A stretch of 64,000 bases of DNA. Origin: an uncultured Collinsella sp. (GTDB lineage: Bacteria > Actinomycetota > Coriobacteriia > Coriobacteriales > Coriobacteriaceae). Positions 1 through 23,245 of this stretch are shown in pieces. Within the stretch, counting starts at the first letter, position 1; every line of letters starts with the position of its first letter. The notes beneath the pieces are model-generated. The model was not told the DNA's origin, searched no databases, and saw nothing but the letters and a program-made list of their open reading frames with translations. The stretch covers positions 7,895-71,894 of the forward strand of contig CAJKFS010000001.1 in the NCBI GenBank assembly GCA_905199225.1. The letters are read 5' to 3'. A program made the position numbers and the translations under genes.

Positions 1-60
1 GTATGACCTTCCGCATGCCGGCCTCCCATCATTTGTGATGCTGTTTTTGTGATGGGCGAG

Positions 61-105
61 GAGCACACCCTACACCATCTCATAGAGATGGTGTAGGGTG
101 TGCTC
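61..105. repeat. Perfect inverted repeat (hairpin): GAGCACACCCTACACCATCTC - ATA - GAGATGGTGTAGGGTGTGCTC, a 21-bp stem with a 3-nt loop
   Basis: Read directly from the sequence; the two arms are exact reverse complements. The right arm is also the start of the duplicated element (copy A). Confidence 0.9.
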
Positions 106-190
106 CTGTAATACAAAAGTTCTTTGAGGGCTTTAGGGCGATGCTTTCAGTTGGGGAGCGTTGTCTTTTTTGAGTGTAATGTCTGACATA
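85..190 (+). repeat. Copy A of a ~105-bp duplicated intergenic element, located ~220 bp upstream of the Abi_2 gene
   Basis: Aligns at ~80% identity with 5190-5300 in the same orientation (GAGATGGTGTAG...CAATACAAAAG...GCTTTA.GGGCGA.GCTTTC...TTTTTT...TGTAATGT). Confidence 0.8.
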
Positions 191-410
191 TTTCCCAAGT
201 GTTGTTTCATTTGCTTGATAGACAAGGGTGTCTGAATTTGGGTTTTATGGTTTGCTGCTCGACTCAAATATTTAACGTTGATTTTTGGATCGATAATCAG
301 TAGACTATCTGAACAGCGGTATTGACGCGGATAACCTACGGGTCCCGCGTCCTGCAGAAAGGCGGCTGTCCTTCTTGGGATGGCTGCCTTTCTTCATTTG
401 AGGAGCCTCA

Positions 411-1352
411 ATGACAGCAAAGCCTTTCTTGCCCATTGACGATCAAGTCAGATTGCTTAAGCAAAGGGGTTTGACTGTTGACGACAACACGGCTCGCATT
501 CTGATGAGCGAGGGTTATTACTCGATTGTTAACGGCTATAAGGATCCGTTTATTGATATGAGCTTAAGCTCGAAGTTCAATGAGGACCGGTATCGCAGCG
601 GCGCAACCTTTTCGGACCTATATTCATTGTTTACGTTCGATAGGGAGTTGAGGTCTCTAACATTTAAGTTTCTCATATTAGCCGAGGCCAAAATAAAGAC
701 CGCGATCGCGTACACCTTTTCGAATGTTCATCGTGGTCCCAATGACTATTACTTGCAGTCTTCATTTTGTACTCAAGACGAATATTCTGCGACGGGAAAA
801 GACGAGGCGAGATACGCCCGTGAGATTTCCAATCTGACGAGCATACTTAGCCGCAGGGCATTAAAAAGTAAATCTGAATTTGTTGCTCACTATCGCAATG
901 AATATGGTTCGGTGCCGCTGTGGGTTCTGGTTAATGATTTGACGTTTGGAAACATGGAGCATTTCTACAATCTGATGAAGCCCGGCGAGCGGCGTACTTT
1001 TTGCAAAATGATTGTAGATGCAACTGGGAAAACCGGATCGAAGAAAAGCGGTTTCTTTAGCGAAAAGGCCGCTCAACTTTCAATTGAAACACTCGTTAAA
1101 TTCCGTAACGTTTGCGCCCATGACGAGCGTCTTTATTGTGCTATGGTCGGAGGGCGCAAGAACATTAACTACATCCAGATGGTGTGGATGCTCAAACGTT
1201 ATCTGACCGAGATTGAATTCAGAACGTTTGTCGAAGAGTTGACGGCTCTGCTGAGTAGGTATTTGAAAACCTACGCGATAAAGCACATACTCGACCAAAT
1301 TGGATTTGTTGAGCTGCTTCAAAAGTCACAAGATGCCACCCTGTTCGATTGA
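411..1352 (+). CDS. Abi_2 family (AbiD/AbiF-like) abortive-infection protein
   Basis: The N-terminus KPFLPIDDQVRLLKQRGLTVDD...GYYSIVNGYKDPF matches the conserved Abi_2 N-terminal signature. Local GC is low (~45-48%). The ATG at 411 is preceded by GAGGAG. Confidence 0.85.
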   Translation: MTAKPFLPIDDQVRLLKQRGLTVDDNTARILMSEGYYSIVNGYKDPFIDMSLSSKFNEDRYRSGATFSDLYSLFTFDRELRSLTFKFLILAEAKIKTAIAYTFSNVHRGPNDYYLQSSFCTQDEYSATGKDEARYAREISNLTSILSRRALKSKSEFVAHYRNEYGSVPLWVLVNDLTFGNMEHFYNLMKPGERRTFCKMIVDATGKTGSKKSGFFSEKAAQLSIETLVKFRNVCAHDERLYCAMVGGRKNINYIQMVWMLKRYLTEIEFRTFVEELTALLSRYLKTYAIKHILDQIGFVELLQKSQDATLFD

Positions 1353-1594
1353 GGCTGAGGGCGTCGATACGGTTGAGTTGTCCTGCAATTGATATCCAAA
1401 TGATTGCACGACAATCTCTATCGAGTATCCAACTTTGCAGAATTATGAGCTGTGGTCAATGAGATGGTCGATGAGTTCGACGGTGGAGTGGTCACTATCT
1501 TTTACATTGAAGCCTAAGGCGATGGACATGCTTTAGATGGGACCGTTCTCACGTGCTGCTGGTTCATGAAGAGTTTTAGACAATTAGAATTAGT

Positions 1595-3421
1595 TTGGAC
1601 ATGGCTTATTTATCAAGGGGGCTGGCAAGAATGCGTCGCAATATCTTTCTGGGTTTTGGTTGTAGCGGCTATCGCTCCTTTTTCGGAAGTGAAGACTCGC
1701 GCTTCGGTCCATTTGATAAAGTCCAAGTCCTAGCGGGACAGAATAACTGCGGAAAATCGTCTCTTGTTGATTTTGTTATTAAGGCAATGACATCCATTGA
1801 CCAAAGAGGGGAAATCGCCCGCAATCGCTATCCCTTCACTAGGGAAGATGCGCCCTTGCTGCTGAAATCAGCGGGGGCAAATGACCCGTTGACTATTTCC
1901 CTGTGTATAGATCGATCTGTTTTATTGGAGTCCTCCAGTTTAAAGCGACCTTCTGGAGATAAGCGGATGGCAGAGCTTTCTGAGTTATTTTCCCGTCCGC
2001 CGTATATATCAAACGATGGAGATGGCGTTTGGCTTGACTTTCTAACGGCGTCGCCGGCTGCTGGGTCGTCTTTAGTAAATGATCTGATTGCGTCTTTCTC
2101 GCAGTATAAAAGTGCAGGCTTGTCTATGGACCTGAATCGCTGCTCCCTTGATCCTCTCCAACACGGCGGTGATGACGAATCGTGCTATGCCGACATAATC
2201 CGCAGTATTGTCCCGTGGGGGAATATCCCTCGCTTTGTTAAGGTCGATGCAATTAGGTCGGTTGAAGACGATGATTTTCCAGATCGCGATGTCGATCTTT
2301 GCAGCGGACGCGGTCTTCCAACAGCTTTGCTTCGCTTGTTTAATCCGGAGCGTTCAAATCATGCTCGGGCAGAAGCGCGGCTGAATAAGCTGCAAGGATT
2401 CGTGCGCGATGTCATGAACGACCCCCGTGCCTCTCTGCTTGTTTCGCATGAAAGCCATGAGATATCTCTTAAGACTTCCGATGCCGATTACCTGCCGCTT
2501 GAATCTTTGGGTACGGGAGTTACGGAGCTCGTAATTCTCGCTTCGATTATTGCTTGCAACGACAACAGCATTATCTGTATTGAAGAACCCGAAATTCATC
2601 TGCACCCGGCTCTGCAGGCGAGGTTTATGAAATACCTTCTCGAGGACGATTCAAACCGATTTATCATCACTACGCATTCTCCAACTGTTATTAACTATCC
2701 TGGCGTTCAGGTTGCCCATGTGTCTAAGACAAATGGAGTTTCTGGATGCAGACAGCTTGACGGTCTGGGTTGTGCTCGCGATTTGCTTGATGATTTGGGG
2801 GTCAAGCCCTCCGATCTGTTGCAAGCAAACTTTGTAGTGTGGGTTGAGGGGCCCTCGGACCGCGTGTACCTGAATTATTGGATTAAGAGATGGTCTGATG
2901 AGCATAACATTTCGCTCGAAGAAGGTATTCATTACAGTGCAATGATTTACGGTGGCAAGTTGCTGAATGCACTAGATGCAAGTGCTGGCGAAGATATCCC
3001 CGCGGAGCTGATATCCCTCTTTAGAATCAATACTCATTTCTGCGTGCTGATGGATTCTGATAAGAAATCCTCTCATTCGAGACTTAATTCAACCAAGCGA
3101 CGCATTATTGACGAGTGCACACAGAACGGCGCAATGTCGTGGGTTACCTGGGGCGCAACAATTGAGAACTATGTTCCAGAAGATGTGCTTGCAGCTTCGA
3201 TTGAGAAATGTTATTCGGGTAAAAAATGGGAGCATCCCCTTGGTGACAGATTTATTTGCCCGCTGAGCTTTACGTTTAAGGGTGGGAAAACGCATCCAGA
3301 TAAAATTAGGATTGCAAGGACTGCCTGTGGGGCCGGTTTTTCTCCGTTGGGTGATGCAATGAAACGCGTGGCAGAGTTGTGCGATCTGATATGTGCGGCC
3401 AATGACGTTGAAACGCAGTAG
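1595..3421 (+). CDS. OLD-family nuclease with an N-terminal ABC/AAA_15-type ATPase and a C-terminal TOPRIM domain
   Basis: Walker A GQNNCGKSS. OLD/AAA_21-type Walker B/D-loop IICIEEPEIHLHP. TOPRIM glutamate motif VVWVEGPSDRVYL and DxD motif LMDSDKK. The 608-aa length is similar to P2 Old and GajA. Confidence 0.8.
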   Translation: MDMAYLSRGLARMRRNIFLGFGCSGYRSFFGSEDSRFGPFDKVQVLAGQNNCGKSSLVDFVIKAMTSIDQRGEIARNRYPFTREDAPLLLKSAGANDPLTISLCIDRSVLLESSSLKRPSGDKRMAELSELFSRPPYISNDGDGVWLDFLTASPAAGSSLVNDLIASFSQYKSAGLSMDLNRCSLDPLQHGGDDESCYADIIRSIVPWGNIPRFVKVDAIRSVEDDDFPDRDVDLCSGRGLPTALLRLFNPERSNHARAEARLNKLQGFVRDVMNDPRASLLVSHESHEISLKTSDADYLPLESLGTGVTELVILASIIACNDNSIICIEEPEIHLHPALQARFMKYLLEDDSNRFIITTHSPTVINYPGVQVAHVSKTNGVSGCRQLDGLGCARDLLDDLGVKPSDLLQANFVVWVEGPSDRVYLNYWIKRWSDEHNISLEEGIHYSAMIYGGKLLNALDASAGEDIPAELISLFRINTHFCVLMDSDKKSSHSRLNSTKRRIIDECTQNGAMSWVTWGATIENYVPEDVLAASIEKCYSGKKWEHPLGDRFICPLSFTFKGGKTHPDKIRIARTACGAGFSPLGDAMKRVAELCDLICAANDVETQ

Positions 3422-3447
3422 GTGAATTATCGACCTGTCAATCATGA

Positions 3448-4476
3448 TTGAGGGGTGCGGCAGCTTTGGACAATAGCGTTGCGTATGAGTTGTATCTATA
3501 CACGATTGATACTTACAAGAGACTTGCCAGCACGCTTCCACTTGATGAGAGGCTTGCCCGTTTCGATCCTAATTGCTTTTCGAAATTAGGTGAACTTGAG
3601 CTTGGGGATGAAGCGTTTGCTGCGGTCTCGGTGCGTCTTATGCTGCAGCGCAAGTATTTTGTGCGCGGAAAGGACTTGTTTCTCAGGAGGCTGCTCAAGT
3701 CTGCTGAACGGGACTTCGCTTCTAGTAAGGATGTGATTGAATCCTTGCTGGATAGTCTTGATGCCCTTAATAGCCAATCAATTGAGTTTGCCTTTGGGGA
3801 CGGCAAGGTTGTCGAGGGTGCCTTTGCAAACGTCGAAGATGTAATGTACGGAGTGCTGATGCACGCGGATATAACGCGGGCAGAGAACCTCGTCTCTGTT
3901 CCCGAACACATGAGACTGGTCGCCCTGGCACCGTATATCGCGGGGAGAGAACAGATTTTGCTGCAGTTCTCTGAGTTCCTTCTTAATGCTGGAATCAAGC
4001 CGCTATCGAGGAAAGAGGAAGCATCGGCAACTGTTTCGTTTGAATCAAAAGACGCTTGTCGCCAGATTGAGAATTCGCCATTTTGGCGAAATCTTCGCGG
4101 TAGAGATCTTGGGGATGAGGACATTGAGAAAAAGGTTCAGCAAGGTTCGCGCGATGATTTAGAGATAATCACCGCTGTTCTACTATTCAAAGAGGCGCTT
4201 GGCAGAAGGCCCCTGGACCCCAGCGAACTCAATTCCCTTGTCGCACGGGAGACCATTTTCAGATGGGGTGATTATTTGCAAGCCGCCGAGCTTTTGGAAG
4301 GGGATTATGGAATGAGCACTCTTGTTCGGTATCAAGAGGACGGCTCGGCCCTCGTAAAGCTTCTCCCAAACGTTCGAGAACCGTTTCTGATTGAGGGACC
4401 GCAGCTCATCGAGGGCGGGCATGAAATAGTTCTGGTGAAGCGGAACGGCATTTGGAAGATATGGGCTATGAGGTGA
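3448..4476 (+). CDS. Hypothetical protein of 342 aa with no recognisable motifs, co-oriented 26 bp downstream of the OLD-family gene
   Basis: Long ORF on the same strand with a TTG start. Codon usage and GC resemble the upstream OLD gene. I could recognise no catalytic motif. Confidence 0.55.
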   Translation: MRGAAALDNSVAYELYLYTIDTYKRLASTLPLDERLARFDPNCFSKLGELELGDEAFAAVSVRLMLQRKYFVRGKDLFLRRLLKSAERDFASSKDVIESLLDSLDALNSQSIEFAFGDGKVVEGAFANVEDVMYGVLMHADITRAENLVSVPEHMRLVALAPYIAGREQILLQFSEFLLNAGIKPLSRKEEASATVSFESKDACRQIENSPFWRNLRGRDLGDEDIEKKVQQGSRDDLEIITAVLLFKEALGRRPLDPSELNSLVARETIFRWGDYLQAAELLEGDYGMSTLVRYQEDGSALVKLLPNVREPFLIEGPQLIEGGHEIVLVKRNGIWKIWAMR

Positions 4477-4699
4477 CTCTTTTCATCTAGTTTGGACGGC
4501 CTTTTATCCATTGGCGGGCGACGTATCACTTCTTTTGCAATTTAACAGCCACATAGCGAGTACGGCCACGCCCAGTCATATGATTCCCGGCGCTAAATAG
4601 CAAATCACTGACGTGGGCGCATGGACCGCGTCTTCGAGAGTCGCAACAGTTGACGAGGAATCGTCGCGTAGGGATATAAAGAATCTGGTGAGTGCGTTA

Positions 4700-5135
4700 G
4701 CCAGAGATGGCTTTACCGGGTTGCCGATGGTGGAGCCGGGCGCTGGAAAAGTTCTTTGTCTTGTGACGATATGTTAAGATCGATACCGTTCAGTTCCCGG
4801 ATCCGCGGGTCGGTGTAGTTGGCGTTGTAGATTGTCGTGTGCACGTCTTCAACAAAGCGGCTTCGCCTGTTTTCGGTTTCTTGATGGCATGGAAGCTCAT
4901 CTTTTCTTGTTCCCCCAGGTCTCTTAAATTGCCTCGTCGAGAAGTTCTACAAAGAGCCTACTGTGACTTGCCAACTCATACACTGCAGTATAGCTTGCGC
5001 CCGCTTTCGCCTCGTGCCAGGCAAGCGGATCGTAGTAGGCGAGAACATTCAATACTGGAAGAAGGCATTGATATGGGAAGTGCCGTGCCTTTTTGCCACC
5101 AAAATGCCCACCGTGCTTAATGGCGTAATTCATAA
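4700..5135 (-). pseudogene. Probable decayed gene remnant in frameshifted fragments
   Basis: Two minus-strand protein-like fragments in different frames (...AYYDPLAWHEAKAGASYTAVYELASHSRLFVELLDEAI, then ...RFVEDVHTTIYNANYTDPRIRELNGIDLNISSQDKELFQRP). No intact ORF longer than 100 aa exists across 4480-5440. Confidence 0.3.
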
Positions 5136-5189
5136 GATTTGTTATGGTCTCGGCCGGCTAGTTACGGGCTGATTTCCTCAATCAAGGGG

Positions 5190-5300
5190 AGATGGTGTAG
5201 AGTATTTTCCTACAATACAAAAGCTCTTCGGGAGCTTTAAGGGCGACGCTTTCTGTTAGAGAGTGTTGCCCTTTTTTCATGCATGTAATGTGCGACGTGC
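5190..5300 (+). repeat. Copy B of the ~105-bp duplicated intergenic element, located ~145 bp upstream of the AbiL-like ATPase gene
   Basis: Same alignment as copy A. It lacks the left hairpin arm that copy A has. Confidence 0.8.
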
Positions 5301-5443
5301 TTGCTAAACGCCATTCCGGCAATGGGATGGTCGAGTGTGGGCGGTTTGCACCTTGCGCCTGCTGTCATTGGTGTAGCAAGCACTTGATTTAGCCTACTTA
5401 AAGTCTATAATCAAAGAAAAACTCTGATATACCTTTTAAAACA

Positions 5444-6682
5444 ATGAAAAGAATGTTGAGTACCATGCTTTGCCAGTTCACCTTCAGGAACTATAGATCC
5501 TATCGCGACGAGACCGAGCTTTCCATGCAGGCAACATCGATGAGGGAGTTCGAGCGTTCCCTCATAGAGTGCCCTGACGGGCAGAATTTCCTTCCGGTAG
5601 CTGCGGTGTACGGGCCTAACGCTGGCGGCAAGTCTAACCTGCTCGAAGCTCTTGACTATATTCGTTCGGCGGTGGCAAGGCCGATCAGATTGTTGTCTGC
5701 CAGCACTGATGTGCCAGAAGGTAACCGCTCTTCGATACCCCGTTGCTCTGCGTTCGAGTTCGATGACGTGTCGGCTGCTAAGCCCACCGAGTTCGAGCTC
5801 TACTATCGCGCAGGTGAGCATGAGTACCGCTATGCCCTGTCCGTGCATGCGGACGAGATTGTGTCCGAAGGACTGTGGCGGCGCAAATTGGGGGCGTCAC
5901 GCACAGCGATGCTGTTCGAGCGCGAGGGCACAGGGGTTGAGCTTGGTCCCACTCTGCGTAAGCTTGTCACGGCTGCGAGATTCAACCCGAGCCTGCCGTA
6001 CCTGTCGTTTCTCTGCATCAACTTTGACGCGCCGGTGGTCAAGGAGGCTGCCAGCTGGTTTCTTGACGGGGTGTTCCTGAACTATAACAGCTCCTATCTG
6101 GAGCAGATGCTCGAACAATTGCTCGACGAGGATGACTCACCCGAGGTCACGCGTTTTTTGTGCGCCGTTGATGTGCGTATTGATGGCTTCAGAGTGGAGA
6201 GGGCGCCGGAGTGGCGCGGCCAGCGCGTCTTCGTGAGGCACGAGGTGGGCGACAAGGCGTACGAGCTGCGTTTATCCGAGGAATCTGCCGGAACCCAGAA
6301 GCTCATGGGGTTGGCTGCGTATCTGATGACAGCGCTTGAGCGTGGTGGCACCGTTGTGGTAGACGAGCTCGACGCCAAACTGCACCCGAAGCTTCTTCGC
6401 TATGTGATTCTGCTGTTTAAGGATCCTGAGGTCAACAAGAGTGGCGCGCAGCTCATCTTCTCGTCCCAGGATGTGTCAACCATGCGAAACGATGTGTTCC
6501 GCCGTGACGAGATATGGTTCGCTGCGCGCGGCGAGGGGGAGGCGAGCCAACTGTGGTCTCTCGCCGACATCCACGAGGCAAACGGTAATCTGGTAAGCAA
6601 GAACGCGGCTCTCGACAAGCAATACCTGTCTGGTCGCTACGGCGCCGATCCGTATCTCACCCGCATCGAAGAGTGGGATTAG
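5444..6682 (+). CDS. AbiLi-like AAA_21/AAA_15 ATPase (ATP-binding partner of an RloB-type protein)
   Basis: Walker A YGPNAGGKSN. Walker B/D-loop VVVDELDAKLHPKL. The stop codon lies 1 nt before the start of the RloB-like gene. Confidence 0.8.
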   Translation: MKRMLSTMLCQFTFRNYRSYRDETELSMQATSMREFERSLIECPDGQNFLPVAAVYGPNAGGKSNLLEALDYIRSAVARPIRLLSASTDVPEGNRSSIPRCSAFEFDDVSAAKPTEFELYYRAGEHEYRYALSVHADEIVSEGLWRRKLGASRTAMLFEREGTGVELGPTLRKLVTAARFNPSLPYLSFLCINFDAPVVKEAASWFLDGVFLNYNSSYLEQMLEQLLDEDDSPEVTRFLCAVDVRIDGFRVERAPEWRGQRVFVRHEVGDKAYELRLSEESAGTQKLMGLAAYLMTALERGGTVVVDELDAKLHPKLLRYVILLFKDPEVNKSGAQLIFSSQDVSTMRNDVFRRDEIWFAARGEGEASQLWSLADIHEANGNLVSKNAALDKQYLSGRYGADPYLTRIEEWD

Positions 6683-6683
6683 C

Positions 6684-7304
6684 ATGCTGGCGAAGAAGTC
6701 GAAGGGCTGGCGTAGCGGCAAGCGCGAGGGCAAGGAGACCGAGCCTCGCTACTTTGAGGGTGTGCGTGCGGCGTTGGGCGCGGCGAACGAGCGTAAGGTT
6801 GCCATTGTCGTTAAGGGGACCGGCAAACACACGCTTGACCTACTTGACTTCGCCGTCGAACACTGCCGCTATGCGCCCGAGACATTCGACCATGTGTGGC
6901 TCGTGTATGACAAGGATGACTTTCCTGCGTCCGACTTTGACGCGATGGAGCGCAAATGCAACGAGCTCTCCGACGGTTCGAGGACCTTCCATGCGTTGTG
7001 GTCGAACCCCTGCTTCGAGCTGTGGCCGCTTCTGCACTTTCGCTACACGACCGCGCATATGTCCGCGTCCGACTGCCAGCATGTCCTCGCGCAGGAGATG
7101 TCGAGAGACCTGGGCATCGAGTACCGCAAGAACTTGGACGGGCTGTTCGAGGTGGTGGACGGCAAACGAGGCGAGGCATTGCAGCGTGTTGGGCGCCTCG
7201 TCACATACCATAGGGGGCTGGGTAACGTTAAGCCATCTGCGCAAAACCCTGCAACCAAGGTGGGCGAAATTTTCGATGTAATCGGGCCGTATCTGGTTGG
7301 CTAG
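6684..7304 (+). CDS. RloB-like / AbiLii-like protein (divergent TOPRIM)
   Basis: N-terminal GKETEPRYFEG motif, a central WLVYDKDDF motif, and SNPCFELWPLLHF. These are the characteristic RloB-family motifs. This frame is chosen over the overlapping frame at 6673. Confidence 0.85.
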   Translation: MLAKKSKGWRSGKREGKETEPRYFEGVRAALGAANERKVAIVVKGTGKHTLDLLDFAVEHCRYAPETFDHVWLVYDKDDFPASDFDAMERKCNELSDGSRTFHALWSNPCFELWPLLHFRYTTAHMSASDCQHVLAQEMSRDLGIEYRKNLDGLFEVVDGKRGEALQRVGRLVTYHRGLGNVKPSAQNPATKVGEIFDVIGPYLVG

Positions 7305-7650
7305 TCGAGTCTGTGGATTGGCTTTCCGGTTAGGGCGATTGGCGGATTATGATGCGCGATTGCAAATCCGGTGCGTAGGAGAAGTGCGGAGAAAAATCGA
7401 AACTCGCCGAGCATAGCCCGATTTCAGGCAACAAAACCGCAGGTCGCGGGTGCCCAAAACTAGGGTCTGGTCGACAGGTCTCGGTTTTTCACCCCACTTC
7501 CGAATTGGTCGCTCATTTAGCACTCTTGATGTCCCCACATCCTCTAAAAAAGTTCTTAAAACAGCCTTAAAGGCGTTCCAACTCGCGTTGACAGCGTAAA
7601 ATACGCATGTTTGACTATGACAGAAGTGGATTTTAGGGGAGGAGTACGCC

Positions 7651-9789
7651 ATGGAGGTGCTGGTTGTTGGCAACACCGCATATGTTGACGATGACTTTTG
7701 TGCCAAGGCGTTCCCCGGGGACCACGTTAAGGTCGTCGCTGCCGCGGAAGCGCGCCGCGACGAGTCGTCGCCCCATGCCTCGTGGAAAGAGCTCCTCCAG
7801 CACCTGGATCAGGCCTACGAGTTCGACCGCGTGGTTTACCTGTCTAATTACCTTACCCCGCATACCGATTCCGTGGGCGATATCGAGCTGCTGCGCTCGG
7901 TCTTTCGTACGTGCGCGGGTCGCCGGGTCCAACTGCTGTATGTAGCGGGGCCCGCGGGTGCCGAGGGTGCCGCCGATGCCGCGGGGCGAACGGGCAAGGG
8001 CATTATCGCGCACGCAGCCAACGACCTGTGCCGCTACTACGCTGCTCGCGAGGGCGTTCAGACCAAGATCCTGCGCGTGCCGTTCCTCTATACCGCGTCT
8101 GCCGCGCTGGAGGACCCGTTTTTGGTGCCGATGTTCGACGCATGCTCAACCGGATCGGCCGCTCTGCAGGGCGCGCAGGATGCGGCGTTTCCCCTGCTGT
8201 GTGCCGAGGAGCTTTCGGTGCTGGTACGCCGTATCTTCGACAGCTGGAATGCTAACTTTGAGACGCTCGACGTAGTCGATACCTTCCATCACACGGTGGG
8301 TGAGGTGGGCGACGCCCTCAAGGCGCTGTTCCCAGGGCTCTCAGTTGCCTATGGCGATTCTGCCGGCTACGCCCTGCCCGCCAGCGACGTCGCTCGCGTG
8401 CGCTATGGCTGGTTTCAGCGCTACGACTTGCTGCGCGACCTCTCGACCATTCAGGCTCGCTGGGATGCTGGCCGTGCAAAGAAGGTCAACCCCTTGCGCG
8501 CGGCCATCGACCGCATTCAAATGCGCACGCTGCCTGTCAAATGCCTGGAGACGGCAGCCGCCTGGGTGCTCTTTGAAGTGCTGGAGCGCTTGTTCTCCCA
8601 ATCGACCCAGCTCAACGTGCTCGATTATCGCCTGCTCTACGTGGTGCTGATCGGCACGCTGTATGGCTTGGACTTTGGCCTGGTTGCGGCGCTGCTGGCG
8701 TCGGTGGGTTTGGCTGCGAGTTACTTTACTCTGTACGGCTATACCTTCCAGGGCCTGTTCTACGAGCCGTCCAACTGGCTGCCGTTTATTGCGTACTTTG
8801 TTGTGGGTGCCGTGTGCGGCTATGTGCAGCTGCGCAACAGCGAAGCCATTAGGGCGGAGCGCGATCAAAACGAGCTCGTGCGCAACCGCAATACGTTCCT
8901 TACGCAGCTCTATCACGACGCGATCGAGGACAAGCGTGCGTACAGGCGCCAGATCGTGGGTCGCCACGACAGCTTTGGCAAGATCTTTGCCGTGACGCAG
9001 GAGCTCGACGTGCTCAACCCACGCGACATCTATCGCAAGTGCTGCGAGCTTCTGGGCGAGATCCTCGAGAACGATTCGGTGGCGATCTACCATGTTTCGG
9101 GCGGGGCATTTGCACGCCTGGTGGCGGCAAGTCCCGCGATTGCCGAAGATGCCGCACGTTCGCTCACGCTTGAGCAGCTTGCACCTCTTTTGAGCGACGG
9201 GGGTCGTTCGAACCTGTGGGTGAACCGCGAACTGATGCCGGGGCTTCCCATGTTTTGTTATACGATCGAGCGCGATGGGGCACCCGCCGTGTTGATCTTT
9301 GTGCGTCGCGCGGCCGAAAACCAAATGACCCTCTATTACCAAAACCTGTTCCGCATCTTGTGTGGCCTGGTCGAAAGCGCGCTGGGCCGTGCCTTTGACT
9401 ATGAGGCGGTGGCACAGGATAAACGCTGCGTTGACGGCACTTGCGTGCTCAAGCAGGCTGCCTTTGGCCAAGAGCTCGCGGCCGAGCAGGCGCTGGCAGA
9501 TGGCAAGATGGGGAGTTTTTTGCTCCTGCGCGTGGTACCAGGCATGGAGCCTATCGGCGAGCTGGTGGGCGCGATTGGGTCGGCGATCCGCGAGAGCGAT
9601 GCGGCGGGCCTGATCGACGGCGACGTGCTCTACCTGCTTATGCGCCAGGCAAAGGCATGCGATCTGCCCATTATCCGCGAGCGCCTGAGCGAAAAGCAGA
9701 TTGAGGTGGAGCCCGTCGACGGCGAGGATATCGTGGCGCTGTTGCAGCACATCTCTTACACCGGTGACGGTGAGGGGGGTGCCGCTTGA
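7651..9789 (+). CDS. pelD: PelD-like c-di-GMP receptor: N-terminal degenerate SDR/epimerase-like domain, transmembrane helices, and a GAF / degenerate-GGDEF C-terminus
   Basis: RESD(x5)DGDVL gives an intact I-site RxxD five residues before a degenerate GG(D/E)EF position. Hydrophobic helices occur near residues 330-400. The N-terminus (VLVVGN..., ...RVPFLYTAS) looks like a Rossmann/epimerase fold without GxxGxxG. It is the first gene of an operon containing pelF and pelG. The ATG is preceded by GGGGAGGAG. Confidence 0.6.
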   Translation: MEVLVVGNTAYVDDDFCAKAFPGDHVKVVAAAEARRDESSPHASWKELLQHLDQAYEFDRVVYLSNYLTPHTDSVGDIELLRSVFRTCAGRRVQLLYVAGPAGAEGAADAAGRTGKGIIAHAANDLCRYYAAREGVQTKILRVPFLYTASAALEDPFLVPMFDACSTGSAALQGAQDAAFPLLCAEELSVLVRRIFDSWNANFETLDVVDTFHHTVGEVGDALKALFPGLSVAYGDSAGYALPASDVARVRYGWFQRYDLLRDLSTIQARWDAGRAKKVNPLRAAIDRIQMRTLPVKCLETAAAWVLFEVLERLFSQSTQLNVLDYRLLYVVLIGTLYGLDFGLVAALLASVGLAASYFTLYGYTFQGLFYEPSNWLPFIAYFVVGAVCGYVQLRNSEAIRAERDQNELVRNRNTFLTQLYHDAIEDKRAYRRQIVGRHDSFGKIFAVTQELDVLNPRDIYRKCCELLGEILENDSVAIYHVSGGAFARLVAASPAIAEDAARSLTLEQLAPLLSDGGRSNLWVNRELMPGLPMFCYTIERDGAPAVLIFVRRAAENQMTLYYQNLFRILCGLVESALGRAFDYEAVAQDKRCVDGTCVLKQAAFGQELAAEQALADGKMGSFLLLRVVPGMEPIGELVGAIGSAIRESDAAGLIDGDVLYLLMRQAKACDLPIIRERLSEKQIEVEPVDGEDIVALLQHISYTGDGEGGAA

Positions 9790-10691
9790 TCTCGCTTGTC
9801 GTTGCTGCCGTCTTGCTGCTGATTCATGCGCTGGTTTGCCTGGTGCTGTGGACGCTCATGAAGTTGGGCCTGCTGCCGGTGCGCGGGCACATGCTGCCTG
9901 TGATAGTGCTGGTGCCGCTGTGGGGCCCGTTGCTGGTGGTTCTGCTATCGGTCTGCAGCGCGGTGTTTGGCGAGGGACTGAATGAGTCTGCGCTGGAGTC
10001 GCTGCGCTTCAACGACGACCTGCATCGCAGCATCTTAGTGCACGAACGTGATGCCGATGCAGGCGTGATCCCGCTCGAGGAGGCGCTCATCGTCAACGAC
10101 CCGGCAGACCGGCGCCGCCTAATGCTCTCCATGCTCACCGAGGAGCCCGACGCGTACCTGGCGCAGCTGCAGGCGGCTAAGCTTAACGACGACGTTGAGG
10201 TGGCTCACTATGCCGCGACGGCGGTGGCGCAGATCTCCAAGGAGTCCGACCTTAAACTGCAGCAGCTGGAGCGTGCCTTTAAGACGGACCCGAGCGCGCA
10301 AAACCTCAACGAATACTGCGATTTTCTTGGTGAATACTTGGGCTCGGGCTTGGCTGAGGGGCGCGTGGCTCAGATTCAACGCCAACAGTACGCGCGCTTG
10401 CTTGCGCGTCGCTGCGAGCGCGAGGACACCCTTGAGCTTCGCATTCGATACGCGACGGCGCTGGCCGATGTCGGACAGATCGACGAGGCGCAGGCCGTGA
10501 CCGACCAGCTGGTGCTCGACGTGCCCGAGGAGCAGGAGGTTTGGATGCTTTGCCTGCGCCTGGCGGTGATGCGCCGCGACGGTGACGAGGTCCACCGCGT
10601 GATCGATGCGATTGACAAACAGCATGTATACTTGAGCGCCGCCAACCGCGAGGAACTGGCGTTTTGGCGCAACGGAGAGGAGGCCCGATGA
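9786..10691 (+). CDS. pelE: PelE-like membrane protein (N-terminal transmembrane helices plus helical/TPR-like repeats)
   Basis: A hydrophobic N-terminus with two predicted transmembrane segments is followed by an alpha-helical repeat region. Its position between pelD and pelA matches Gram-positive pel operons. The TTG start overlaps the pelD stop. Confidence 0.5.
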   Translation: MISLVVAAVLLLIHALVCLVLWTLMKLGLLPVRGHMLPVIVLVPLWGPLLVVLLSVCSAVFGEGLNESALESLRFNDDLHRSILVHERDADAGVIPLEEALIVNDPADRRRLMLSMLTEEPDAYLAQLQAAKLNDDVEVAHYAATAVAQISKESDLKLQQLERAFKTDPSAQNLNEYCDFLGEYLGSGLAEGRVAQIQRQQYARLLARRCEREDTLELRIRYATALADVGQIDEAQAVTDQLVLDVPEEQEVWMLCLRLAVMRRDGDEVHRVIDAIDKQHVYLSAANREELAFWRNGEEAR

Positions 10692-12568
10692 GCGTGGTGC
10701 AGCATATCCGCGACCGTGCGGGCCATTTTCGCTGGATGGGGCTGCTTGTGGTGTGGGCGGTCTTTATTGCCATGGCGGCCGTGCTGCTGGTGGAGCGCGC
10801 CGGCGTGCAGTACAGTGCGGGCCAGCATAAGCTGGGGATGCTTGCCGCCAACGATGCGGTGCCGGCTTCCTCCGCAATATTTGGCCAAAAGCCCACGTGC
10901 CTGGTCATTACCGATTCCGACCAAGCTGGCGTCGAGGACGTAAAGGAGCAGTTTGACCAGATCCTGCTCGACATGAAGATCGCGCACCGCGACGTGGACC
11001 TTGCCCTGGACGGCGTGGATGCCATTCCCTCGCTGACCTCCTTCGATCGCGTGATTTTGCTCATGCCGTCGCTCGATGGGCTCGGTACGCACCTGAGTGA
11101 CATTATGAGTTGGGTGAGTGCCGGTGGTTCGCTTATGCTCGCCATGCCTCCGGATAACTCGAGCTATCTGCAAGTAATTGCCCCCAAGCTTGGCATTGAA
11201 TCGGCCGGATATGACTATGTAAAAGCCGAAAGCATTGTGCCGAGCGAGGACTTTATGCTGGGCGGGGGAGAGCGCTACGAGCTCTCGGACCCCTTCGATT
11301 CGTCGCTTTCGGTTTCGCTGCGCGAGACGGCTCGTGTGTGGGCTAAGACCGGCGATGCGGGCGCCCCGCTCATTTGGTCGAATGACTGCGGTAGCGGGCG
11401 CACCGTGGTATGCAATATCGGTATCTATGACAAGGTTATGCGCGGTTTTTACGCCGCGGCGATCAGCCTGCTGGGCGATGCCACGGCCTATCCGGTCATC
11501 AACAGCGCCGTTTTCTACCTAGACGACTTTCCCAGCCCCGTGCCCTCGGGCGATGGCACCTACATCAAGCGCGACTACGGGCTTTCCATTGCCGATTTTT
11601 ACACCAAGGTTTGGTGGCCCGATCTGCAAAAGCTCGCGCAAAAATATGGCATTCGCTTTACCGGCGTGATGATCGAAAACTACGAGGACGCGGTCAACCA
11701 GACCGAGCCCGCGCGCCAGGCCGATACCACGCAGTTCCGCTACTTTGGCGGTATGCTGCTGCAGATGGGCGGAGAGCTGGGCTTTCACGGCTACAACCAT
11801 CAGCCTCTGGCGCTCTGGGATACCGACTATGGCAAGCTGTACGACTACAAGACGTGGAAGAACGAGGAAACGCTCGTCGCGTCGCTCAACGAGCTCATCG
11901 CCTTTCAGGACGAGGTGCTGCCCAACGCGCACGGCTCGGTCTATGTGCCACCGTCGAATATCCTTTCGGCCCGTGCGCGCAAGCTTATTGGCACCGACGT
12001 TCCGCGCATTAAGACCATCGCCAGTACGTATTTTGAGGATGGCACCGTCTTGCCCCATGTGCAGGAGTTTGGCGTGGCGAGCGATGGCATTGTGGAGCAG
12101 CCACGTATTGTCTCGGGCGGCATGGTCAACGATTCCTATATGCGTCTGGCAGCCGTGTCCGAGCTCAACATGCACTACGTGAGTACGCACTTTATGCACC
12201 CGGATGATCTGCTCGATCCCGATCGCGGCGCCAAGGAGGGCTGGGAGGTCTACAAGGGCGGTCTGACCAACTACCTGGAGTGGCTTACCAAGTCTGCGCC
12301 CGACCTGCGGCGCCAGACCGGTTCGGAATGCTCGGGCGCCATCCAGCGCTTTTCGTCCGTGACGGTGAGCGTGGATACAAGTGCGGATGCCTGGACGCTC
12401 AGCCTGGGCAATTTCCACGACGAGGCGTGGCTCATGTTCCGCGCCAACAACGGTGAGCCCGGTGCAGTCACGGGTGGCGAGATTACGCATCTGACGGGCG
12501 ACCTGTACCTGGTCAAAGCCACGGACAAGACGGTGACCATTGCACGCAAGGAGGGTGGCGACAAATGA
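10688..12568 (+). CDS. pelA: PelA-like polysaccharide deacetylase (CE4-like) with an N-terminal membrane anchor
   Basis: CE4-like motif 1 FYLDDFP and motif 2 HGYNHQP. An N-terminal transmembrane helix is present. ATGA start/stop coupling links it to pelE upstream and pelF downstream. Confidence 0.55.
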   Translation: MSVVQHIRDRAGHFRWMGLLVVWAVFIAMAAVLLVERAGVQYSAGQHKLGMLAANDAVPASSAIFGQKPTCLVITDSDQAGVEDVKEQFDQILLDMKIAHRDVDLALDGVDAIPSLTSFDRVILLMPSLDGLGTHLSDIMSWVSAGGSLMLAMPPDNSSYLQVIAPKLGIESAGYDYVKAESIVPSEDFMLGGGERYELSDPFDSSLSVSLRETARVWAKTGDAGAPLIWSNDCGSGRTVVCNIGIYDKVMRGFYAAAISLLGDATAYPVINSAVFYLDDFPSPVPSGDGTYIKRDYGLSIADFYTKVWWPDLQKLAQKYGIRFTGVMIENYEDAVNQTEPARQADTTQFRYFGGMLLQMGGELGFHGYNHQPLALWDTDYGKLYDYKTWKNEETLVASLNELIAFQDEVLPNAHGSVYVPPSNILSARARKLIGTDVPRIKTIASTYFEDGTVLPHVQEFGVASDGIVEQPRIVSGGMVNDSYMRLAAVSELNMHYVSTHFMHPDDLLDPDRGAKEGWEVYKGGLTNYLEWLTKSAPDLRRQTGSECSGAIQRFSSVTVSVDTSADAWTLSLGNFHDEAWLMFRANNGEPGAVTGGEITHLTGDLYLVKATDKTVTIARKEGGDK

Positions 12569-13992
12569 GAATCTGCTTGGTACTCGAGGGTTGCTACCCC
12601 TATGTGCACGGCGGCGTGTCCACCTGGATGCACGGCTACATACAGGCCATGCCCGAGCACGAGTTTGTGCTGTGGGTGATTGGCGCGCATGCTGTCGACC
12701 GCGGCAAGTTTGTCTACGAGCTGCCCGGCAACGTGGTCGAGGTGCACGAGGTGTTTCTGGACGACGCCCTGCGCCTATCGGGCGAGCAAGAAGAGGCCGA
12801 CTTTAACGCCCGCGAGCGCGAGGCGCTGCGCCGCCTGGTGTCGCTCTCCAATCCGGACTGGGACGTGCTATTCGATATCTTCCAGCGCCGTCGCGTGCAT
12901 CCGCTCTCGTTTTTGCAGAGTCGCGCCTTTATGGATATCTTTCGCGACGTGTGCCTGGCCGAGTACCCATACACGCCCTTTGCCGATGCATTCCACACCA
13001 TGCGCTCCATGCTGCTGCCCGTGCTCTACCTTCTGGGCAGCGAGGTGCCGGTGGCCGATGTGTACCACGCCATCTCGACCGGCTACGGTGGCCTGCTCGC
13101 CTGCCTGGGCTCAAGCGTTCACCATGCGCCGGTGCTGCTGACCGAGCATGGCATCTATACTCGCGAACGCGAGGAAGAGATCATTCGCGCTGACTGGGTG
13201 GTGCCGTCGTTTAAGGACCGCTGGATCCGCTTTTTCTACCTGCTTTCGGAGGAGATCTACCGTCGCGCCTTCCGCGTGACCAGTTTGTTCCATAACGCCC
13301 GCAAGACGCAGATCGATATGGGCTGCGATGCGGACAAATGCCTGGTCATCCCCAACGGCATCCAGTTCGACCGCTTTAAGGACATTCCCTTAAAGCCCGA
13401 TGACGGCTGGGTGGACATTGGCGCGGTGGTGCGCCTGGCGCCCATCAAGGACGTCAAGACCATGATCTATGCGTTCTTTGAGCTGCACGAGCGCCTGCCC
13501 AAGGTGCGCCTGCACGTTATGGGCGGCGTGGACGACGAGGAGTACGGCGCTGAGTGCCACGCGCTGGTCGATACCCTGGGCGTGCGCGACCTGATCTTTA
13601 CCGGCCGCGTCAACGTGGTCGAGTACATGGAAAAGCTCGACTTTACCATTTTGACGAGCATCTCCGAGGGCCAGCCACTCAGCGTGCTGGAGTCGCTTGC
13701 AGCGCGCCGTCCCTGCGTGACGACCGAGGTGGGCTGCTGTCGCGAGCTGCTCGAAGGCGCCCCGGGCGACGACTTTGGCGTGGCGGGTTTTGTGACGCCG
13801 CCCATGTATCGCAAGGGCTTGGCCGATGCCATGGAGCGCATGTGCGTGAGCCGCGCCCGTCGCATTGAGATGGGGGAGCGCGGGCAGCGTCGCGTTGCCA
13901 CGTACTTTTTGCACGAGCAGATGCTCGCCAACTATCGCGCGCTGTACGACGAGACGGCGTGTGCGTTTAACCTGCCCAGAGAGGGGGAGTAG
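12565..13992 (+). CDS. pelF: PelF, a GT4-family glycosyltransferase with an N-terminal DUF3492
   Basis: N-terminus MRICLVLEGCYPYVHGGVSTW matches the PelF/DUF3492 signature (CLLLEG.YPYV.GGVSSW). The C-terminus has the GT4 fold motif E..GQPLSVLES.A. Confidence 0.85.
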   Translation: MRICLVLEGCYPYVHGGVSTWMHGYIQAMPEHEFVLWVIGAHAVDRGKFVYELPGNVVEVHEVFLDDALRLSGEQEEADFNAREREALRRLVSLSNPDWDVLFDIFQRRRVHPLSFLQSRAFMDIFRDVCLAEYPYTPFADAFHTMRSMLLPVLYLLGSEVPVADVYHAISTGYGGLLACLGSSVHHAPVLLTEHGIYTREREEEIIRADWVVPSFKDRWIRFFYLLSEEIYRRAFRVTSLFHNARKTQIDMGCDADKCLVIPNGIQFDRFKDIPLKPDDGWVDIGAVVRLAPIKDVKTMIYAFFELHERLPKVRLHVMGGVDDEEYGAECHALVDTLGVRDLIFTGRVNVVEYMEKLDFTILTSISEGQPLSVLESLAARRPCVTTEVGCCRELLEGAPGDDFGVAGFVTPPMYRKGLADAMERMCVSRARRIEMGERGQRRVATYFLHEQMLANYRALYDETACAFNLPREGE

Positions 13993-13995
13993 CCG

Positions 13996-15540
13996 GTGGC
14001 CGGAATTGGTTTTGAGCTCAAGCGCCTGTTTAGGCGCAAGGGCCTGTTTGCCACGATGCGCGCTTACGGCTACGCCGGCATCGTATGCACGGGCCCCATG
14101 CTGCTGGGTGTGCTGCTGCAGGTGGGTATTTTGGTGCTGTGCGGTCTGTGGGGTGTGGGCCGTGCCAACCAGGATCTGCTGGTGTGCATGGTGACCTACA
14201 CACTGCTGGCCTCGCTTGCGCTCACGAGCTTTTTCTCCATGCCGGTCACGCGCTTTTTGGCTGATATGTTGTTTGCCGAGCGCGAGGATGAGATACTGCC
14301 TTCGTTTTGGGGCTCCAATGCTGTCATGCTCGTTGCGGGCACGGTGCTCTACGGCGTTTTTTTGCTGTTCTCGGGCGCCACGCTGCTGCAGGGGCTGCTA
14401 TGCCTGTGGCTGTTCAACATTATGATCGTCAACTGGAACGGCATGAGTTACCTCACGGCCATCAAGGATTACCGCGGTATCCTGTGCAGCTTTGCGGCTG
14501 CCATTGGCGTGGCGTGCCTGTGCGCTCTGGCCGCGCTGGCGCTGGGACTGCCGCCGGTCGAGGGCCTGCTGGCGTCAATCGCTCTGGGCTACGGCGTGAT
14601 GCTCGCTTGGGACGTGGTGCTGCTGTACCGGTATTTTCCACGGAGTGACCGGAGTCCCTGGCGTTTTTTGCGCTGGCTCGACCAATTTATGCCGCTTGCG
14701 CTTACGGGGCTGTTTACCAACTTGGGGCTTTTCGCACACCTGGTTATTATCTGGGCGGGCCCTATTGGCGTGCAGATCAAAGGCCTGTTTTACGGGGCTC
14801 CTTACCATGACGTGCCGGCACTCATTGCGTTTTTGACCACACTCGTCACGACCGTCAACTTTGTGGTGTCGGTCGAGGTCAATTTCTATCCGCGCTACCG
14901 TGACTACTACAGCCTTTTTAACGACGGCGGCGTGGTGGGCGATATTGTGGTGGCCGAGGAGGAGATGCTCTCCACGCTCAACAGCGAACTGCGCTTTTGC
15001 GCGCTCAAGCAGCTGTTTGTGACGGCGGCGGTCATTTCGCTCGAGACCACAGTGCTCTCGGCCCTGCCGCTGGGCTTTAACAATCTTATGCACGGGTATT
15101 TTCGCACGTTATGCGTAGGCTACGGCCTGTATGCCGTGGGCAACACGATCCTGCTTATCTTGCTGTACTTTACCGACTACAAGGGAGCCGTTCTGGCCTC
15201 GGGCCTGTTTGCCGGTGTGGCAGGGTTGGCGACCGCCGTGTCGTTGCTTTTGCCGCAGCAGTTTTACGGCTTTGGCTTTTTGTTGGGTGCGGTGGTGTTT
15301 TTTATCGTGGCCCTGCTGCGGCTCGATACCTATACCGCCAACTTGCCGTATCGTATCCTGAGCCAGCAGCCCATTGTGGCGACCGACAAAACGGGTCGCT
15401 TTACACAGCTGGGCCGCTTGCTCGACCGTGCCGAGCAGCGCTATGAGGAGTGCCGCCGCAAGGGCGTGCCGCACGGCGCGTTTCAGCGCGCAGTAGTTCG
15501 CGTGTATCGCAACCATTGGGGAGGTTCTGATGATCGATAA
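13996..15540 (+). CDS. pelG: PelG, a polytopic membrane protein (MOP/flippase-like)
   Basis: N-terminus MAGIGFELKRLFRRKGLFATMRAYGYAGIVCTGPMLLGVLL closely resembles PelG N-termini. Roughly 12 hydrophobic segments are present. GTG start. Confidence 0.85.
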   Translation: MAGIGFELKRLFRRKGLFATMRAYGYAGIVCTGPMLLGVLLQVGILVLCGLWGVGRANQDLLVCMVTYTLLASLALTSFFSMPVTRFLADMLFAEREDEILPSFWGSNAVMLVAGTVLYGVFLLFSGATLLQGLLCLWLFNIMIVNWNGMSYLTAIKDYRGILCSFAAAIGVACLCALAALALGLPPVEGLLASIALGYGVMLAWDVVLLYRYFPRSDRSPWRFLRWLDQFMPLALTGLFTNLGLFAHLVIIWAGPIGVQIKGLFYGAPYHDVPALIAFLTTLVTTVNFVVSVEVNFYPRYRDYYSLFNDGGVVGDIVVAEEEMLSTLNSELRFCALKQLFVTAAVISLETTVLSALPLGFNNLMHGYFRTLCVGYGLYAVGNTILLILLYFTDYKGAVLASGLFAGVAGLATAVSLLLPQQFYGFGFLLGAVVFFIVALLRLDTYTANLPYRILSQQPIVATDKTGRFTQLGRLLDRAEQRYEECRRKGVPHGAFQRAVVRVYRNHWGGSDDR

Positions 15541-17299: not shown

Positions 17300-18077
17300 C
17301 GCGCTGCTTGAGCGCTTGGCGGCTCCGCCTGTGCGTGCCACGCAGGAGCGTTACCGCCACGAGCTCAAATATCTCATTAACGAGGGTGAGCACGCCGCGC
17401 TGGCCTGCCGCATGGCGCCGGTTTTCAAGCTAGACAAGCATGCGCAGGCGGGCGGCTATACCATTCGCAGCCTGTACTTTGACGACTACTGCAACTCGGC
17501 CTACGAAGAAAAAGACGCCGGCATTCTTATGCGCAAAAAGTATCGCGTGCGCATCTATAACGGCAGCGACAAGGTGATTAAGCTCGAGCGTAAAAAGAAG
17601 TACGGTAGCTGGATCTACAAGGAGGACGCGCCGCTCACGCGCGGCGAGTTTGAACAGATTCTGGCCGGAGACTACGACTTTTTGCTGAGGAGCCCCTATC
17701 CCCTCTGTCGCGAGTTCTACATCGAGTGCATCTGCAACATGATGCGCCCGCGGACCATCGTGGACTACGAGCGCGAGCCGTGGGTGATGGACGAGGGCAC
17801 CGTGCGCATTACCTTTGATAGCAACGTGCGTGCCGCGGTGGGAAGCTTCGACATCTTTGACGCGACGCTGCCCGCGCTGCCGGTCCTGGAGCCCGGCAAG
17901 CTGGTGATGGAGGTCAAGTTTACGGAGTTTTGCCCGCAGCTGGTGCGCGATATGGTGCCGCCGGGCGCGGCCGAGCTCACGGCGGTCTCCAAGTACTGCC
18001 TGTGTTACGAAAAGACCGCCTACCTGCGCGGATTTAATTACTGGGAATCGGATTTTGAGAACCGAGGGGATATTTAG
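17286..18077 (+). CDS. VTC-domain (CYTH-like, polyphosphate-polymerase-domain) protein
   Basis: LKYLINEGEHAAL...GYTIRSLYFDD...KYRVRIY matches the bacterial VTC-domain pattern. It overlaps the upstream gene by 14 bp. Confidence 0.65.
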   Translation: MRKASALLERLAAPPVRATQERYRHELKYLINEGEHAALACRMAPVFKLDKHAQAGGYTIRSLYFDDYCNSAYEEKDAGILMRKKYRVRIYNGSDKVIKLERKKKYGSWIYKEDAPLTRGEFEQILAGDYDFLLRSPYPLCREFYIECICNMMRPRTIVDYEREPWVMDEGTVRITFDSNVRAAVGSFDIFDATLPALPVLEPGKLVMEVKFTEFCPQLVRDMVPPGAAELTAVSKYCLCYEKTAYLRGFNYWESDFENRGDI

Positions 18078-18080
18078 ACC

Positions 18081-18746: not shown

Positions 18747-18752
18747 TTTGGT

Positions 18753-18776
18753 TCCGGCGTTCTAACGAACGCCGGA
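18753..18776 (+). terminator. Hairpin (10-bp perfect stem TCCGGCGTTC / GAACGCCGGA, loop TAAC) 7 nt after the operon stop, with no U-tract
   Basis: Read directly from the sequence. Likely the end of the pel-CotH-VTC-DUF4956 transcript. Confidence 0.45.
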
Positions 18777-19013
18777 CCGCTCGACGCTGCGCGGGCATCT
18801 GCCGGGCGATCTGCCGCTCAAACCGTCGCTCGCGTACATAAAGTACGCGTCGCTCCTCTTTTGTGGCACCTCGCCACGGCAGCTGCCCGTTCGCTGGCGT
18901 ATGCTCGACCAGGATGGGCATATTTGGTTCGGTTTAAATTGATTTATTATGCCGACTTGGGCTGGGTATGATGGTGCAAACGATTGCAAGATAAAGGGGT
19001 GCTCGTGGTAAAG

Positions 19014-23208: not shown

Positions 23209-23245
23209 CGATTCGCCGCATATCGGCGCTATACTGCAGCCGTTG

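Follow-up and report, generated by a model that had tools for sequence, protein, structure and literature searches.

How does a gut bacterium come to carry several phage-defence genes side by side, in a stretch of DNA with a guanine-plus-cytosine (GC) content well below that of its surroundings? The question arises at the start of a 64,000-nt stretch from an uncultured Collinsella sp. (assembly GCA_905199225.1, contig CAJKFS010000001.1, positions 7,895 to 71,894; hereafter the window). An earlier note, made from the sequence alone, had described positions 61-7304 as a phage-defence island of three stacked units: an Abi_2 abortive-infection gene, an OLD-family nuclease with a partner, and an AbiL-like pair. 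We find that this low-GC stretch is the right half of a stack of independent anti-phage modules about 14 kb long. With good confidence, we read window positions 1 to ~7380 as the right half of a ~13.7-kb defence island of the Collinsella aerofaciens group, a stack of modules that sits in a core hotspot between rml and pel genes and is exchanged by homologous recombination. The locus is an ordinary core defence hotspot, made up of Abi and OLD-type families already known, in a host that has received little study, and nothing in the window requires a new mechanism.

The low GC content itself is clear. Windowed GC is 0.456-0.523 per kb over positions 1-6000 and 0.58 over 6000-8000, against about 61% for the rest of the window, where most other 1-kb windows lie at 0.59-0.65 (full range 0.55-0.68). 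The foreign composition does not extend to every gene. Compared with a host GC at third codon positions (GC3) of 0.734 +/- 0.071, calculated from 34 long host open reading frames (ORFs) in the same window, AbiD (0.52), the OLD nuclease (0.47) and a gene for a 336-aa protein (0.53) stand apart, whereas the AbiL pair is host-like (GC 0.57 and 0.59, GC3 0.70 and 0.76). The island genes other than AbiL fall 2.5-4.7 standard deviations (SD) under the host mean, and all island ORFs of the window are on the plus strand. Pfam and PADLOC scores bear out the gene calls, and the hidden Markov model searches proposed in the earlier note, now run, place AbiD, OLD and AbiL in defence families. The claim that all coding genes here are immune-type is thus upheld for these three, but not for the 336-aa protein, which matches no family. 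Two other claims have to be redrawn: the island does not begin at position 61, as ~6.3 kb more of it lie beyond the left edge of the window, and in place of three units there are four live modules and a KAP-NTPase stub in the window, with two further modules outside it.

The missing left half is found on a metagenome contig (L001) that is 99.99% identical to window positions 1-7972 and extends 6402 nt leftward at 39-52% GC. Its genes (L001 178-6311) encode a 348-aa protein with predicted transmembrane-like segments, a 972-aa protein, a PP2C phosphatase and a PIN_12 protein. The 972-aa protein joins a metallophosphoesterase to a STAND (nSTAND4) NTPase; it matches PADLOC PDC-S60, and NCBIfam DS8_antiphage at 4e-75, below that model's cutoff. 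The 348-aa, 972-aa and PP2C genes travel as a unit in other contigs, and homology with other contigs breaks sharply 3 nt past the PP2C stop and 13 nt past the PIN_12 stop. The next genes leftward are the rhamnose-biosynthesis genes rmlB and a fused rmlC/D at 66-70% GC (contigs L109, L096 and L113 among L093-L117), and the rml genes end ~57 nt into L001. With rml genes on this side, the island measures ~13.7 kb and lies between them and the pel operon. Its right boundary is a pelD-like core gene (7651-9789, plus strand, 712 aa), which is outside the island and is the first gene of a pel exopolysaccharide operon running from 7651 through the pelD-like gene, TPR, DUF2194, PelF and PelG. No integrase, transposase, recombinase or tRNA was found in or beside the ~14-kb island; the absence of integrase and transposase genes reported for the window part therefore still holds after extension to the left boundary.

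To see what occupies this position in relatives, we gathered 80 loci with the pelD-like protein as query, each species being represented by one genome. Collinsella is the label of nearly all, Coriobacteriaceae or uncultured bacterium that of the remainder, and the pelD-like flank is present in all of them. Every one of the 38 loci that reach more than 6 kb beyond pelD on its upstream side has DNA of 40-52% GC there, largely unshared between loci. ORF clustering of these slots yields differing gene sets, mostly on the plus strand, and module order varies too (AbiL precedes the AbiD leader in L101). In a census of 123 cluster representatives against Pfam and PADLOC, defence families dominate: AAA_21 (9), Abi_2 (3), AbiH (3), GmrSD_N (2), RVT_1 (2) and OLD-like_TOPRIM (2), together with Abi_alpha, SMODS + AGS_C + SLATT_4, UvrD, KAP NTPase, MqsR/MqsA and S8 peptidase + AAA. 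Flanking polysaccharide genes and IS256 transposases also appear in the census. A slot that is low-GC and hypervariable in all 38 loci indicates a core defence hotspot rather than a one-off insertion. The earlier note would have taken as a refutation that related genomes carry the same genes in the same place with matching composition. This is in part the case: the AbiL pair adjoins pelD in 24 of the 53 loci with enough upstream sequence, and low-GC DNA of variable content occurs there in all of the 38.

Core defence hotspots have been described in Pseudomonas aeruginosa, where they are named cDHS1 and cDHS2 (Johnson et al., 2023; PMC10250203), and defence-island hotspots are also reported from E. 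coli (PMC10121019). As in cDHS1 and cDHS2, the Collinsella slot is fixed between conserved genes and almost always filled, its defence content differs by isolate, its GC is under that of the host, and no single mobilising element accounts for it. It differs in that the host is a gut actinobacterium (Coriobacteriia), the flanks are polysaccharide loci (rml and pel), and there is no tRNA or tmRNA at the flank (no tRNA/tmRNA integration site was found in 20 loci or near the island). For the Pseudomonas hotspots, transfer by homologous recombination through the conserved flanks has been proposed (PMC10250203), and a mosaic among our relatives gives this proposal direct support.

The mosaic is seen in L030, a different species-level genome. 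Over positions 810-5422 it has only 15 differences from the window (99.7% identity), and from 5423 onward identity is ~96%, which is core-level divergence. Since the last mismatch is at 4917 and the next at 5423, the crossover falls in an interval that holds the second copy of a repeated linker (X copy B, described below) and the spacer before the abiLi promoter. This is direct evidence that homologous recombination, with its anchor in conserved sequence of the linker and AbiL, has recently exchanged the AbiD-OLD-336aa-stub block. Most likely, modules are swapped by homologous recombination in general.

The duplicated intergenic element reported earlier is indeed present. Its two copies, which we call X, are ~110 nt long and about 80% identical, and lie on the plus strand at 85-200 (copy A) and 5189-5300 (copy B), both right ends being approximate. 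Each copy combines a 5' box (GAGATGGTGTAG...) with a small hairpin and a strong intrinsic terminator, which runs into a row of Ts. In copy A, a divergent paralogue and an outlier among X copies, the hairpin is AAAGTTC/GGGCTTT and the terminator lies at 135-167. Copy B is of the common type, with three plus-strand hairpins that end in the terminator at 5239-5273. The 23-nt box has three matches, with none expected by chance. In related loci we count 26 X copies, at junctions with many different neighbours, and X also occurs paired with a second element, Y, with no cargo between them. The two 3' hairpins of X are kept across 21 copies from related genomes. Because its terminator stem has four G.U pairs, X folds only as plus-strand RNA, and as the changes are nearly all one-sided and G.U-compatible, nothing beyond a conserved terminator can be claimed. 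No exact match to X was found in IMG/VR viral contigs. Given the 80% identity, the varied neighbours and the cargo-less X-Y pairs, X is a recurrent terminator-bearing linker between modules and not an attachment (att) site. The suggestion that the duplicated elements mark insertion junctions is therefore right in one respect, as the breakpoint interval (4918-5422) contains copy B, but the many X copies and neighbours do not agree with the scar of a nested site-specific insertion.

Element Y (7381-7506) is a ~125-nt imperfect palindrome of back-to-back terminator-like hairpins, with arms resembling TCCGGAAGTGCGGGGAAAAATCGA. It usually ends 136 nt upstream of pelD and is also found between modules; there are 63 copies in related loci, at 1-3 per locus (L004-L081, L090, L118). 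Within the window X and Y are each confined to the island region, and they do not stand between every module. A search of X and Y against Rfam returned only tRNA at gathering thresholds, and only chance microRNA matches on a palindrome at E<=1. At 59-107 lies a perfect 23-bp palindrome with a 3-nt spacer (arms 59-81 and 85-107); its right arm coincides with the 5' box of X copy A, of which its left arm is an exact inverted copy. Three independent metagenome contigs (L095-L097) terminate at it, and for this reason it probably breaks assemblies. Two further candidates were considered and set aside. Y is not a conserved long hairpin, as RNAalifold fails to recover one and the outer arms change without compensation or covariation. 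The motif TGGTGTAG was tried as a recombination core and rejected because its copy at 5369 is not conserved in other loci; it is enriched in the window, with 6 matches (four in the island) against 0.76 expected. To our knowledge, locus-specific repeated linkers like X and Y have no counterpart in described hotspots.

The position of the X copies invites a different explanation, namely that an AbiD-OLD-336aa element integrated site-specifically beside AbiL and left X as attL/attR or as target duplications. Two direct copies bracket exactly this block, which is compositionally foreign and recently exchanged, with its right end in the interval containing copy B. However, the copies are only ~80% identical, copy A being the outlier, and X is found in related loci beside varied neighbours and next to Y without cargo; there is no integrase, transposase or tRNA in ~14 kb, and the modules of L101 are ordered differently. 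We regard such a nested insertion as highly unlikely. Even less credible is an integron-like array, in which X and/or Y would be attC-like and an integrase at some other site would have captured the plus-strand genes as cassettes. Most of the genes do share one orientation, and Y, an imperfect palindrome in the size range of attC, does occur 1-3 times per locus at module borders. Yet neither boundary carries an IntI-type gene and none is among the census families shown, X and Y, at only 1-3 per locus, do not stand between all modules, and AbiL has a promoter-like site of its own. The outer arms of Y carry uncompensated changes with no conserved fold evident, while X, with its G.U pairs, folds only as plus-strand RNA and behaves as a terminator rather than a recombination hairpin.

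It could also be argued that nothing was acquired, and that gene-specific constraints lower the GC of ordinary, vertically inherited genes. The AbiL pair would suit this view, with its host-like GC3, its presence in 24 of 53 relatives and its co-divergence with pelD. The other island genes do not, as they combine GC3 values 2.5-4.7 SD below the host mean with absence from most relatives, and the block from AbiD to X is 99.7% identical where the core differs by about 4%. We give purely vertical inheritance the slimmest chance of these explanations. Nor does the locus resemble an integrative island, prophage or integrative and conjugative element, having no recombinase in ~14 kb, no tRNA and no match to plasmid or phage DNA; an origin of the island DNA from a plasmid or phage was rejected, as blastn found no match to either.

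Several observations nevertheless count against a hotspot island exchanged by homologous recombination, the explanation we prefer. That no integrase appears in the census applies to its 25 most frequent Pfam families, and some relative may carry a rare integrase. The left flank varies by lineage (rml genes, a transglutaminase-like surface protein or UDP-glucose dehydrogenase) and is followed in some genomes by more variable low-GC DNA, which makes the left limit of the slot less sharp. IS256 is present in four loci and an IS1595-type element in L109, indicating that transposition contributes at least sometimes. As for function, every defence role proposed here is a prediction from family membership, and those of the 336-aa, 348-aa and PIN_12 genes are putative. 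The Toprim assignment of the OLD protein also falls below threshold (Pfam OLD-like_TOPRIM at 16.4 bits against a cutoff of 23.2, E = 0.013).

We now turn to the individual modules. AbiD (411-1352, plus strand) is a single-gene abortive-infection protein of 313 aa. It matches Pfam PF07751 at 133.9 bits (cutoff 25.6) over profile positions 2-183 of 184 and PADLOC AbiD at 1.5e-44, and its HEPN Rx4-6H motif reads FRNVCAHDERL near residue 232 (core RNVCAH). HEPN proteins of the AbiD type are RNases and work through abortive infection. The gene resembles AbiD, AbiD1 and AbiF (Pfam Abi_2) in that it encodes one protein of ~310 aa, which matches Abi_2 at full length and has an HEPN Rx4H motif; it differs in not being on a lactococcal plasmid and in having a conserved hairpin leader ahead of it. 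AbiD was found in 7 of the 38 related loci. Its upstream region and leader (200-410, plus strand) contain a hairpin and a T-rich tract at ~355-400, directly before the ribosome-binding site. The conserved part of the leader spans ~340-405, where the hairpin (GGCGGCTGTCC...GGGATGGCTGCC) is followed by the T-rich tract abutting the ribosome-binding site. This leader may be an attenuator. In five loci (L060, L081, L007, L044 and L079) we also observed AbiD ghosts, consisting of the leader and the first ~17 codons without the rest of the gene, between X and Y.

In OLD nucleases an ABC ATPase works together with a Toprim nuclease. The second module (1631-3421, plus strand, 596 aa) is a class-1-like single gene of this kind, with an ABC ATPase and a putative C-terminal Toprim domain. 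Its ATPase motifs are GQNNCGKSS (Walker A), LGTGV (signature), ICIEEPEIHLHP (Walker B) and TTHSP (H-loop), with IEEPEIHLHP also present, and it scores 69.7 bits against Pfam AAA_21 and 67.1 bits against AAA_15. The C-terminal part carries VWVEGPSD and LMDSD, candidates for the conserved Glu and the DxD of Toprim. In PADLOC the protein matches AriA, NsnB, GajA and ATPase-Toprim, and the GajA and ATPase-Toprim alignments run to aa 441-503; the C-terminal domain alone had no match in a PDB sequence search. There are ~2,700 homologues, most of those listed being equal in length and some named "ATP-dependent nuclease". Relatives on viral contigs are full-length at 31-35% identity, with one partial match at 41%.

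The OLD gene and the 336-aa gene downstream had been described as a pair, and this could not be sustained, since the two vary independently in other genomes. Only one other locus of the 38, L030, holds both. Downstream of one OLD homologue (58% identity) lies a 355-aa gene that is unrelated (hhalign probability of 0.07% against the 336-aa protein), and downstream of another (44% identity, tblastn) come a 0.9-kb gap and DUF4238. The genomic context of both sets of homologues thus rules out the 336-aa gene as an obligate OLD partner, and the two are probably separate modules. The locus does not look like Gabija (OLD class 2) either: the downstream 336-aa protein has no helicase domain or Pfam match, and there is no UvrD-like GajB. 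Because its neighbours are not conserved, we read OLD as a class-1-like single-gene system, class 1 being the single-gene class in the summary of OLD classes given in PMC11464382 (citing Dot et al., 2023). Like the class 1 proteins P2 Old and Thermus scotoductus OLD (6P74), it is a single ~600-aa chain with an N-terminal ABC ATPase, a C-terminal part, putatively Toprim, with E and DxD motifs and no conserved partner gene; it differs in that its similarity to solved OLD/GajA structures is mainly confined to the C-terminal part of the ATPase. As a separate observation, loci L118-L121 (5001-10304), from another lineage, carry the OLD homologue with 58% identity, the unrelated ~355-aa gene, an AbiLi/RloB pair and Y downstream. 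This pair is only 28-30% identical to that of the window, and the order of system types is the same, which suggests that OLD and AbiL-type modules are recurrently co-located.

The 336-aa protein (3466-4476, plus strand) is an orphan, with no match in Pfam, PADLOC or NCBIfam, and falls into a small family without a name, made up of 38 clusters. In its AlphaFold model (mean predicted local distance difference test score 76.8) the N-terminal domain is helical and the C-terminal one NTF2-like; the model gave no significant PDB or BFVD match. Members of the family follow OLD in the window and in L030, and elsewhere follow a 532-aa AAA_21 ATPase unrelated to it or, in another Collinsella hotspot, a split AAA_13 ATPase; they also stand alone. 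The gene is probably an independent module.

Between this gene and AbiL lies the decayed remnant recorded in the earlier note. It was spotted as a broken minus-strand frame in a six-frame translation of 4477-5190, and occupies 4716-5154 on the minus strand, with one in-frame stop and one frameshift. Using tblastn with intact genes from related loci (Pfam KAP_NTPase at 3.5e-30), we matched it to residues ~310-455 of a KAP-family NTPase with a length of ~455 aa; it aligns in two pieces at 67-68% amino-acid identity to the intact L021 gene. Only the C-terminal third is left; the 5' two-thirds are gone and with them the P-loop portion, so the remnant is a pseudogene fragment rather than a member of the KAP family in its own right.

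The last module is the AbiL pair. It begins with a sigma-70-like promoter, TTGATT-16-TATAAT (5384-5411, plus strand), which is the left edge of the conserved AbiL module; upstream of this promoter-like site, other loci have X, Y or something else. The first gene, abiLi (5444-6682, plus strand), encodes a 412-aa ABC ATPase (PADLOC AbiLi at 7.4e-83, AAA_21 at 94.2 bits). The second, abiLii (6684-7304, plus strand), starts 2 nt after the abiLi stop and encodes a 206-aa RloB-type, Toprim-related effector (Pfam RloB at 105.5 bits, cutoff 31.5; PADLOC AbiLii at 5e-17). Among the relatives, AbiL identity to the window is 81-99% (mean 91.7%) and pelD identity averages 95.8%, with a correlation between the two of r = 0.72. 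AbiL thus tracks the divergence of pelD, which fits a long-resident, ameliorated module. AbiL has been grouped with PARIS among the defence systems that combine an ABC ATPase with a TOPRIM effector, and in PARIS the ATPase senses a phage trigger and then releases the nuclease (PMC11464382). Like Lactococcus AbiL and the AriA/AriB pair of PARIS, the Collinsella module consists of two abutting genes, for an AAA_21 ABC ATPase and a RloB-type Toprim-related effector. It differs in being chromosomal, host-like in composition and semi-fixed beside pel in many Collinsella species, and unlike the DUF4435-type effector of PARIS, its effector is of the RloB type.

Taken together, the island reads from left to right as the 348-aa gene with the DS8-like metallophosphoesterase-STAND NTPase and PP2C, PIN_12, AbiD, OLD, the 336-aa gene, the KAP stub and AbiLi/AbiLii. 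The modules are self-contained and lie mostly on the plus strand, with X or Y linkers separating some of them and at least AbiL having its own promoter-like site. Judging from their families, each module would independently sense infection and then kill or arrest the cell or cut nucleic acid. AbiD would do so by RNA cleavage, and OLD and AbiL by ATP-controlled Toprim nuclease activity, PARIS-like in the case of AbiL. Their acquisition is shown in part: modules are gained, lost and reordered singly, and most likely exchanged between lineages by homologous crossovers in conserved flanks and shared linkers instead of by a dedicated integrase. On this reading AbiL is an old, ameliorated resident and the AbiD-OLD-336aa-stub block a recent arrival. 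X, Y and the AbiD leader hairpin plausibly insulate toxic genes from read-through transcription.

We also see a small chance that the locus holds something more novel: either X and Y both insulate Abi modules and act as portable homology anchors, or the 336-aa protein is a new defence gene. As anchors, the linkers would allow single modules to be swapped between Collinsella lineages without a recombinase, in a cassette-like exchange. As a defence gene, the 336-aa protein, which recurs in defence contexts and sometimes after unrelated ABC-type ATPases (OLD, AAA_21, AAA_13), might work by itself or serve ABC-ATPase sensors as an interchangeable effector or adaptor.

Some neighbouring features deserve mention. 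Window positions 7651-24300 begin with the pel operon, which is of the Gram-positive type; its pelD-like gene has a weak DUF4118 match, and its PelF is a glycosyltransferase. Beyond the operon, the same interval holds CotH kinase-like, VTC and DUF4956 genes, and after them a sucrose-type cluster of LacI, phosphotransferase system EIIBC and GH32 genes. On the left side of the hotspot, GC swings in both directions: GC-rich genes (up to 78%) lie amid low-GC hotspot DNA in L017 (3252-4520), L039 (3090-4265) and L020 (61-1938), and their products are two surface proteins, one sortase-anchored (LPKTAD motif) and one transglutaminase-like. In L109 (4625-8784), an IS1595-like transposon with inverted repeats GGCTCTGTTAGACCAG and an 8-bp target duplication ATTTATTA interrupts the 348-aa gene, while the island is identical in other respects. 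The transposon encodes a transposase of 368 aa and, with an NPPF motif, an 885-aa protein of the N6-adenine methylase or type IIG-like kind.

Collinsella is an abundant yet poorly studied actinobacterium of the human gut, and its defence hotspot can now be placed between rml (in this lineage) and pel. The locus is a clean case from nature in which homologous recombination exchanges defence genes one module at a time, and the breakpoint has been narrowed to an interval of 500 nt. Hotspot genes that belong to no family, such as those for the 336-aa and 348-aa proteins and several clusters of 300-500 aa, are candidate new systems. Both linkers (X and Y) and the family of the orphan 336-aa protein are worth following, as is the hotspot itself, for which the pelD-like flank gene provides a handle for harvesting defence systems from hundreds of Collinsella genomes and metagenomes.

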